From a virus (taxonomy: Duplodnaviria > Heunggongvirae > Uroviricota > Caudoviricetes), in IMG/VR virus record IMGVR_UViG_2909314774_000001: DNA of 64,000 nucleotides; one strand, given 5' to 3'. Positions within the stretch are counted from its first letter, which is position 1. Each line of letters starts with the position of its first letter. Shown piece by piece: positions 62,859 to 63,636 of this stretch. The translations under genes and the position numbers were made by a program. The notes beneath the pieces were generated by a model. The model saw only the letters and a list, made by a program, of their open reading frames with translations, was not told the origin of the DNA and ran no database searches.

Positions 62859-63636
62859 AAATACAATGATAAGTATTTACTTACTTATCTTTTATGTATA
62901 AGATGACTTTGTTTTCGTTGAGACGCGACTGTTTGAACTTAAATACAAGTGCAAACGAAGAAGTCTATCTGGCAGTAGCCTAATAAGCCAAACACCAGCG
63001 AGGTCAGTTTCCAGCCTCGTTACCGAAATGGGACACACTGAGCGAGTGTGATTGCAGAACGCAGGAGGGAACATTCATGTTCCCTCCGATGAAGTAACAG
63101 AATGGGCGGTTGGTATATTTTCAACTCCATATGACTCCCGGATTCTTAGCCACTGACCGCCCATCCTGTTACGTCATTTTGTTCAATTATGCCGTTTATA
63201 CTGGGTTAAAAAGCGGCGACGTAGCCCGGCTGGTATGGTTAGCCAGCACACAACGTTGAGGCCATTACATTTTTATCAATTCTAAGGTTCTATTCACAGA
63301 GATACCGGCGAGCGTTGATATGTAACATGTTGGGCAAACATTCAATCGGAGTAGTGGCCTCAACGTTGTGAAGACGGGATTGTTGTGTAGGTTTAACCAC
63401 TGTTGCCATTGGTGCCTGTTTTCACAACAAATGATTCCATACATCACATTGTATAAATTACAAAGTAGGTGCTGTCCTCAGAAACATCATCTACTTAAAG
63501 ATTTTGCCTTCTACTATTGAGCGAAGTCGAAAGCGTCTGGCACTAACGAAAAGTGCAAGTAGCGGTGCGTTTCCTGGCAGAAACTAAACCGTCGCGATTG
63601 GCACTGTTGAGTAATAAATACTGGCAGTGCTGAATT

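Follow-up and report, generated by a model that had tools for sequence, protein, structure and literature searches.

We analyzed the roughly 0.8 kb at positions 62859-63636 of a 64,000-nucleotide (nt) stretch of phage DNA (IMG/VR record IMGVR_UViG_2909314774_000001; the whole stretch is called the window below), a region that lies upstream of a tRNA cluster and whose 5' part is predicted to encode a conserved RNA resembling the message half of transfer-messenger RNA (tmRNA, or SsrA) without the tRNA half. The window is an SSU5-like phage-plasmid: in BLAST comparisons the region shared 97-99.7% identity with Escherichia coli plasmids and with phages Cyrano and CMS-2020a, while its identity to Salmonella phage SSU5 was about 78%. 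It is flanked on the left by a 96-amino-acid (aa) open reading frame (ORF; end at 62858) and on the right, in the same orientation, by genes for tRNA-Asn(GTT), tRNA-Tyr(GTA) and tRNA-Thr(TGT) at 63637-63883; all features described here are on the plus strand unless noted. No terminator was predicted between 62859 and 64000. In a near-identical plasmid (L017) the operon continues past the position of the window end with two long-stem modules, tRNA-Ser(TGA), a further long-stem module and a terminator-like hairpin, the first of its kind, which thus stands only past the fourth tRNA. Since no terminator was found before the tRNAs, the region and the tRNAs are probably co-transcribed, and the 0.8-kb stretch looks like the promoter-proximal first third of a noncoding RNA/tRNA operon of about 1.7 kb.

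The tmRNA-like RNA without a tRNA-like domain (here MLD RNA) was placed at 62911-63062 by conservation, covariation and sub-threshold Rfam tmRNA matches. Its 3' end is at or beyond about 63062, and in the SSU5-type lineage it may include a conserved core that extends to about 63247. Within the RNA, at 62951-62986, is the frame GCA AAC GAA GAA GTC TAT CTG GCA GTA GCC TAA TAA, which would encode the tag ANEEVYLAVA followed by two stops. The ten sense codons and first stop (62951-62983) have neither a start codon nor a Shine-Dalgarno (SD) sequence, and they are preceded by the A-rich context UUAAAUACAAGU. For comparison, E. coli ssrA reads AAAAAAUAGUC GCA AAC GAC GAA AAC UAC GCU UUA GCA GCU UAA, encoding ANDENYALAA. 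Among the tags of other lineages were ANEEMYLAVA (in HK620), ANEDTYLAVA, ANDNQYLAVA, ANDNVFLAVA, ANDNTFLAVA, ANDEQFLAVA and others, and the frame is conserved with synonymous changes in unrelated phage groups. A C-terminal end of the LVA type is a known ClpX degron. The resume context is AUAAAU-GCA or AUAACU-GCA in most lineages, with U at -5 and A at -4, resembling AAUAGUC-GCA of E. coli.

Codon periodicity was assessed in a sample drawn without regard to the tag, by a downstream motif and BLAST matches, which comprised 77 loci and 24 distinct tag sequences. All 24 variants retain ten codons and a stop, with no internal stops and no indels. Variable sites were found at 11 of 11 third codon positions, compared to 3 of 11 first and 6 of 11 second positions, and the amino-acid pattern A-N-[DE]-x-x-[YF]-L-A-V-A is conserved. 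Three-periodic substitution of this kind is the signature of a decoded frame, and by this comparison the tag frame is shown to be under coding-type constraint. A micropeptide in the +1 frame (AUG CAA ACG ... UAG), found in some lineages, was considered and rejected: SSU5 types have GUG or CUG in place of its AUG, and it is frame 0 that shows the periodicity.

The structure predicted around the tag frame consists of several hairpins and a pseudoknot. Following the invariant 5' end GUUUUCGU (62911-62918) are a small hairpin, UCG/CGA (62915-62917/62926-62928), and a pre-tag hairpin, ACUU/AAGU (62937-62940/62947-62950), so that the tag is preceded by a nested hairpin instead of a pseudoknot. A helix 5-like pairing, CUGG/CCAG (62969-62972/62995-62998), is followed by hairpin Ha, CGAGG/CCUCG (62999-63003/63015-63019), by a pseudoknot (PK-a) between the Ha loop and a downstream strand, UUCCA/UGGGA (63009-63013/63029-63033), and by hairpin Hb, CACACU/AGUGUG (63034-63039/63045-63050). 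Covariation was scored in two alignments, one of 21 SSU5-type sequences (A2) and one of 34 sequences from other lineages (A3), with controls in which the partners were slid along the alignment and with 500 shuffles. In A2, 94.4% of cells pair, vs. 35-49% with slid partners, and 23 pairs are changed on both sides, vs. 2-6; in A3, 94.0% of cells pair, vs. 32-44%. In neither alignment did any of the 500 shuffles match the observed covariation. Compensatory pairs in A3 make up 3/5 of Ha, 2/4 of PK-a and 2/4 of Hb, and Hb is compensatory in A2 as well. Ha occurs as CGAGG/CCUCG, UGAGG/CCUCA, CAAGG/CCUUG and CAGGG/CCCUG, and the PK-a pairing, UUCCA/UGGGA in the window, is CCAG/CUGG, CCGA/UCGG or CCAA/UUGG elsewhere. 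For a second pseudoknot, PK-b, other lineages show seven or more complementary solutions; it is not evident in the SSU5 type, the window included. The outer CUGG/CCAG of helix 5 is invariant across lineages and is the only clear helix-5 helix in the window, and the inner UAGCC/GGCUA, with the stop codon in its loop, covaries (C-G to U-A) among the non-SSU5 types of A3. Given a stop at a helix 5-like hairpin and the pseudoknots and hairpins behind it, we interpret the whole as a tmRNA-like message, helix 5 and pseudoknot body. Rfam scans of the region, the window and relatives, which the earlier note had proposed as a check, returned the tRNAs and otherwise only sub-threshold fragments of tmRNA; the tmRNA matches all fall within this stretch and cover positions 83-140 of the RF00023 model and the coding part of the permuted models.

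Directly upstream is a promoter region (62865-62904) with a -35 element TTTACT (62876-62881), a 17-nt spacer and a -10 element TAAGAT (62899-62904). The hexamers are kept in relatives while the spacer diverges, the Klebsiella form being TTTACT-17-TATGAT. Independent lineages have the near-consensus promoters TTGACA-17-TAGATT and TTGACA-17-TATAGT at the same distance before GUUUUCG, and in all, promoters directly upstream of the tmRNA-like RNA were found in four lineages. Transcription would start at about 62911. Overlapping the -35 element is a palindrome, AATGATAAGTA/TACTTATCTTT (ATAAGTA-TT-TACTTAT, 62865-62892), that is conserved in SSU5-type relatives and may be a repressor operator. Because of this promoter and of the tmRNA-like tag frame (62951-62983), we regard the 5' part of the region as an RNA gene of its own rather than as a leader. 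The proposal of a structured RNA leader in the earlier note thus holds as far as a structured noncoding RNA is concerned, which fold z-scores and covariation in 21 relatives support, while the leader role gives way to a promoter and a tag frame.

The 5' end of the MLD RNA, GUUUUCG, is invariant and single-stranded. In an exact-complement scan, 40 of 42 sequence clusters had it within a perfect 8-11-nt complement to E. coli ssrA nt 96-107, and no other conserved complementarity to ssrA was found in that scan. These ssrA nucleotides are tag codons 3-6, of which GUUUUCGU itself is complementary to codons 3-5; the match is extended in different directions by lineage (UAGUUUUCGU, AGUUUUCGUC, GUAGUUUUCGU). 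The target sequence is present in about 76 of 120 sampled species of Enterobacterales and Pasteurellales. From the sequences, the invariant 5' end is the likely contact point with host ssrA. Two IMG/VR contigs carry rare forms of this seed: UAUUUUUCG in L058 would match an ssrA encoding ANDEKY (GAA AAA UAC), and UAGUUUUCAUC in L168 would match GAU GAA AAC UA. Both forms are suggestive of covariation between the seed and host ssrA. RNAduplex comparisons of whole RNAs with ssrA gave giant duplexes without meaning and were set aside in favor of the exact-complement scan. By eye the 5' part looked homologous to ssrA nt 12-36, which local alignment against shuffles did not support. Homology of a phage attachment site (attP) to ssrA was rejected, as phages that integrate in ssrA do so at its 3' end, not in the tag region, and as BLAST with the element does not find host ssrA.

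BLAST matches of about 77% identity to 62899-63053 were found in unrelated phages, where this sequence carries no annotation. In Felix O1-like phages the element is within tRNA arrays, in HK620 and HK633 it is between pR'/qut and the late terminator, and in siphoviruses of Klebsiella, Escherichia and Aeromonas it is upstream of tRNAs. Also found to carry it were Kuttervirus, Agtrevirus and prophages of Shiga toxin-producing E. coli (STEC), the last with the element likewise between pR'/qut and the late terminator, where the neighboring genes are those for the Q antiterminator and the holin. Among complete E. coli genomes, 349 of 5426 (about 6%) have it, with 141 copies on chromosomes and 218 on plasmids, and it is never annotated by PGAP. 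The tmRNA database papers describe phage tmRNAs from mycobacteriophages and Bacillus phage G, plus a form in phage DS6A with the tRNA-like domain only. These papers and keyword searches of the literature yielded no such element, the sole trace being an ARAGORN-based remark on "ssrA" for phage Moogle. In phage Cba120 (L015), the tmRNA-like RNA (1423-1608) is located in an unannotated 2.1-kb noncoding region (760-2940) full of non-canonical tRNA-like units missed by ARAGORN, such as those at 1190-1296 and 1710-1835, with a T-arm, a 6-7-base-pair (bp) acceptor and large insertions; one encodes CCA. The second pseudoknot strand of the Cba120 RNA, CUCCCGCC, is identical to the 3' strand of the E. 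coli ssrA T-arm (nt 346-353).

The tRNA half of a tmRNA was sought with ARAGORN and Rfam scans ranked by E-value. The window and the other 49 kb of a 99.7%-identical plasmid contain four ordinary tRNAs and no tRNA-like domain, and the complete HK620 genome contains neither a tRNA nor a tRNA-like element. We found no acceptor pairing for the 5' GUUUUCG with downstream segments and no T-loops in the downstream modules C, C' and D described below. Upstream of the tag, where permuted tmRNAs characteristically have the acceptor piece, the window has a promoter and a protein gene instead. A phage homolog of SmpB was not found by tblastn. In Citrobacter phage Mijalis (L002, 1978-2050, and likewise in L113) there is a circularly permuted tRNA-like element, the basis of an ARAGORN call of permuted tmRNA, in which the T-arm GAAGGTTCGATTCCTTC precedes ACCCTTC-G-CCA; after a further 4 nt come the complementary GAAGGGT and the D-arm-like TAGTGTAATGGCAGCAC, and there is no G3:U70.

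The features shared with tmRNA (SsrA; RF00023, clan CL00001) are a start-less ten-codon frame beginning with GCA (Ala)-AAC, a tag of the gammaproteobacterial type, A-N-D/E-x-x-Y/F with a hydrophobic Ala/Val end, and a stop at a helix 5-like hairpin; the A/U-rich resume context and the one or more pseudoknots directly downstream may also correspond to those of tmRNA. The phage element differs in having no acceptor stem, G3:U70, T-arm or CCA, in a nested hairpin that replaces PK1, in its length of about 150 nt compared to 363 nt, and in a tag that ends in LAVA where that of tmRNA ends in ALAA. The element, which phages, phage-plasmids and prophages encode, scores far under the Rfam tmRNA thresholds; because both the tRNA-like domain and the thresholds fail, it falls outside the defined tmRNA family. 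In two-piece tmRNAs of Alpha- and Betaproteobacteria and cyanobacteria (RF01849-51, RF04321) the message is likewise a separate RNA piece, and the coding part of their models gave the best sub-threshold matches, but in those genes the acceptor piece is always directly upstream in the same transcript, and none was found in this genome or in HK620. Another phage with only half a tmRNA is mycobacteriophage DS6A, which is the mirror image, having the tRNA-like half without a tag frame where the present element has a tag frame without the tRNA-like half; expressed in E. coli, the DS6A element was reported to inhibit host tmRNA (PMC4131195, PMC11915505).

The conservation, codon periodicity and covariation of the element and its lack of a tRNA-like domain are consistent with a tmRNA-derived message RNA that acts on or with host trans-translation, a reading we consider fairly probable. 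If the tag frame is decoded, as its periodicity suggests, the RNA must work with the host machinery for trans-translation, namely alanyl-tmRNA and SmpB. Several points weigh against this interpretation. The transcript, the RNA ends and the tagged peptide are so far predictions from sequence, and without a tRNA-like domain we know of no established route by which a ribosome would enter the frame. Third-position variation in codons 7-10 is partly explicable by RNA pairing in helix 5. An important base in the E. coli resume context is U at -5, a position at which the window and a Citrobacter variant (AUACAAGU-GCA) have C. The window promoter is weak, with 8 of 12 consensus positions, and falls under the promoter-scan threshold. 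Rfam scores are far below gathering cutoffs (17.3 vs. 84 bits for RF01850, 22-27 vs. 47 for RF04321 and 10-13 vs. 47 for RF00023), and nucleotide similarity to host ssrA is restricted to the tag region, with local alignment z-scores of at most 2.4, which are not significant.

One way in which the element might act is by hijacking the host RNA, a mechanism suggested by the 5' complementarity that we put forward tentatively and consider rather unlikely. The phage 5' end GUUUUCGU (10-11 nt in some lineages) would base-pair with SsrA tag codons 3-6 (GAC GAA AAC UAC), and because the pairing is antiparallel, the phage resume context and tag frame would be placed beside the host alanyl-tRNA-like domain and SmpB. 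This hybrid host-phage two-piece tmRNA would present the phage template to ribosomes under rescue, and stalled proteins would receive a tag ending in ...YLAVA, not ...YALAA; alternatively, the pairing might just block the host template. In either case the degradation tag could be re-specified or disabled during lysogeny and infection. An 8-mer complementarity recognized post hoc is a weak statistic, and Salmonella ssrA (ANDETYALAA) is mismatched internally while Salmonella phages keep the same seed; both points count against this mechanism.

The element is widespread and unannotated, and its mechanism is outside known biology: tmRNA is defined by a tRNA half plus a message half, and a conserved, apparently decoded message half alone has no known mode of action. 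Its carriers include HK620, relatives of Felix O1, Kuttervirus, phage-plasmids of the SSU5/pHCM2/pMT1 types and about 6% of complete E. coli genomes, so that it is present in clinically common plasmids and in therapeutic phage families. It offers a direct way to study the action of phages and prophages on ribosome rescue and ClpXP/SspB-dependent proteolysis, and it marks an annotation blind spot, as ARAGORN, Rfam and PGAP all miss it.

The same 5' end could instead belong to a regulatory or sponge RNA of the seed type, which would pair with ssrA or with mRNAs containing ACGAAAAC and whose tmRNA-like body would only mimic tmRNA to bind its partners, such as S1 or RNase R, the tag remaining untranslated. 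Conserved 5' seeds are typical of enterobacterial small RNAs (sRNAs), the 5' end here is invariant and single-stranded in 40 of 42 clusters, and the copy in HK620 and STEC prophages is within the pR' short transcript. Such an RNA would leave the three-periodic substitution and the conserved tag residues unexplained, and no Rho-independent terminator directly follows the element; we regard this explanation as unlikely. Slightly harder still to credit is a genuine phage tmRNA in two pieces (permuted or split), of which the element would be the coding piece, with the acceptor piece (T-arm, acceptor strand and CCA) encoded elsewhere in the phage genome. The Mooglevirus contigs L002 and L113 gave ARAGORN calls of permuted tmRNA with the tag ANDNVFLAVA and have a convincing 3' tRNA domain, TCAGGGTATGAGAGAAGGTTCGATTCCTTCACCCTTCGCCA, followed 4 nt on by the complementary GAAGGGT and a D-arm-like segment; there are several non-canonical T-arm/CCA elements near the Kuttervirus copy, and the Moogle genome paper reports an "ssrA" on the basis of the ARAGORN call (PMC4319497). 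These two calls, both in Mooglevirus, are however the only real ones in 145 contexts; the T-arm/CCA element there is about 500 nt upstream of the tag with three tRNAs and a promoter between, its acceptor stem has no G3:U70, and the 5' domain assigned by ARAGORN falls inside tRNA-Lys. Neither the window, nor the other 49 kb of the near-identical plasmid, nor the complete HK620 genome has a T-arm or tmRNA-like element that would serve as the partner.

It is improbable that the element is a decaying, functionless fragment of a phage-captured tmRNA gene spread with tRNA cassettes. Loss of function would fit the missing tRNA-like domain, the location, which is always in recombinogenic noncoding tRNA regions, a Yersinia pMT1 copy that is cut off by the caf operon, and one natural variant in which part of hairpin B is lost, but at least five unrelated phage groups retain the frame and the structure at nucleotide identities of 65-80%, with codon periodicity, compensatory pairs and no frame-breaking indels, though the flanks are indel-rich, and several lineages have a promoter of their own for it. 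Least credible of all, and already contradicted by the comparative data, is the earlier view of a structured leader or translational attenuator that controls the downstream tRNA cluster through a Pro-Pro mini-ORF, MFPPMK*, a reading frame that is indeed present at 63077-63097, one base from the position first given. This view drew on an AGGAGG and an ATG within a hairpin and on the location upstream of tRNAs. The hairpin (B; 63064-63087, with perfectly complementary 11-nt arms at 63064-63074 and 63077-63087) has a predicted energy of -17.9 kcal/mol and a z-score of -5.7 against 200 dinucleotide shuffles, the control used for all folds here; none of the 200 shuffles folded as well. Compensatory changes on both sides of 6 of its 11 pairs (21 sequences) argue that it is an RNA helix, with the mini-ORF residues merely tracking changes in the stem. 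The peptide is not conserved (MFPPMK, MPYSMK, VPLPMR, MPLPMW, and no start codon in the L026 group), nor is the SD (AGGATAGGG, AGGTAGGG, AGAATAGG); the stem encloses both the start codon and the SD, natural variants lack the hairpin or carry a changed one, as in L134, where the 3' arm is deleted, and downstream there are tRNAs and neither a regulated ORF nor a terminator/antiterminator alternative.

Hairpin B and modules C and D are best read as distinct, conserved stem-loop units downstream of the MLD RNA. Behind hairpin B, the other inverted repeats of the earlier note were likewise recovered, except that the 3' arm of the second is at 63156-63168, 2 nt from the stated 63158-63170, and the pairings are kept through compensatory changes in 21 related phage-plasmids. 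The statement that the region has no ORF of 60 aa or more was marginally wrong, as there are three minus-strand ORFs of exactly 60 aa (62892-63074, 63265-63447 and 63584-63766), which the indel pattern and the compensatory pairs in relatives argue to be noncoding. Module C (63089-63177; arms 63089-63110/63156-63177, 22 nt, 91% complementary) contains the second repeat as a 13-nt core and has a stem of about 22 bp, a 2x2 internal loop (AUG-NN-GUAACAGAAUGGGCGGU / ACCGCCCAUCCUGUUAC-GU-CAU) and a variable 45-nt apical part; its fold (-34.6 kcal/mol, z -5.1, 0/200 shuffles as good) is accompanied by four compensatory pairs, for example CAGAAU/AUCCUG vs. CGAGAU/AUCUCG. Module C' (63168-63247) includes GUUACGUC/GACGUAGC (63168-63175/63218-63225), which competes with the base of C, and the hairpins GCCGUUU/AAAGCGGC (63191-63197/63210-63217) and GCUGG/CCAGC (63229-63233/63243-63247). 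The core shared by all SSU5-type relatives, the divergent L026 group among them, ends with this module, whose fold (z -1.6, one compensatory GC to AU change) is weakly tested because most positions are invariant.

Module D (63249-63370; arms 63249-63268/63351-63370, CACAACGUUGAGGCCAUUAC ... GUAGUGGCCUCAACGUUGUG, 20 nt, 95% complementary) is the most stable of these folds at -47.8 kcal/mol (z -6.5, 0/200), with compensatory pairs (GC:10/AU:8 and GC:11/AU:5), and it is absent in the L026 group and in L111. A fourth inverted repeat, hairpin E (63365-63428; 63365-63378/63415-63428, GUUGUGAAGACGGG / CCUGUUUUCACAAC), shows covariation by eye, the Klebsiella form being GUUGUGGUCACGG / CCGUGGCCACAAC; because it shares the GUUGUG of the D 3' arm, the E and D pairings are alternatives. 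Long-stem cassettes with the ends CACAAC...GUUGUG recur between the tRNAs and form a family, module D included, in which a bulge is conserved and the interiors are hypervariable. Other members are module Y1 of the window (63886-63973; CACAACAGGUAAGAGCAUUGG ... CCAGUGCUCUUACCGUUGUG), which is of the same family as the module behind the MLD RNA in HK620, Carvaje and siphoviruses, and L017 7168-7245 and 7432-7513, and cassettes of this family flank the tmRNA-like RNA in HK620, Carvaje and the siphoviruses. They are most likely double-strand processing stems of an RNase III-like kind around variable small cargo RNAs. The long terminal stem is shared with YrlA and other bacterial Y RNAs, and in swi2 and Carvaje the cassette interior also holds a T-arm-like hairpin. 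YrlA RNAs are recognized by a GNCGAAN0-1G motif near the 5' end, tRNA-like T and D arms and an adjacent Ro60 gene (PMC4201824), and the assignment of the long-stem modules to this family was rejected, as they have no such motif, no match to RF02553 at E-values up to 10 and no annotated Ro60 gene nearby. The noncoding phage RNAs T4 species 1 and 2 and lambda 6S RNA are co-transcribed with phage tRNAs or made from a constitutive late promoter upstream of lysis genes; to our knowledge none of them has a tmRNA-type tag frame.

A further conserved module follows the cassettes at L017 7246-7344 and HK620 (L001) 2729-2815, with the form GGUGAAUGC...GCUGAUG ... AUCAGCACCGGCCACCACA and an internal GCUGAU/AUCAGC pairing. 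It ends in CCACCACA, and the ACCA there was considered as a free CCA end and rejected, since it is part of a terminal helix that covaries (GUGGUG/CACCAC vs. GUGAUG/CAUCAC). The fourth tRNA of L017, tRNA-Ser(TGA) at 7345-7431, had tRNA-Sec as its best model match, at 41.1 bits compared to a gathering cutoff of 47.

Elsewhere in the region, 63431-63520 (ATGATTCCATACATC...) is a gene-start remnant that duplicates the beginning of the 50-aa ORF at 62419-62571 (MIPYIS...). A stop truncates it in relatives, but it is intact in the L026 group, where an intact gene of about 70 aa and a small gene of the 62419 type occupy the place of module D. The Yersinia pestis plasmid pMT1/pG8786 (L006, 1463-2007) keeps the tmRNA-like RNA and modules B to D, directly behind which the caf1R/caf1M capsule operon replaces the tRNAs. 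On the minus strand of the window, at 44946-45681, there are also three sub-threshold Rfam matches to isrG, an Hfq-binding sRNA of a Salmonella island, the best scoring 26.2 bits (E-value 0.0047).

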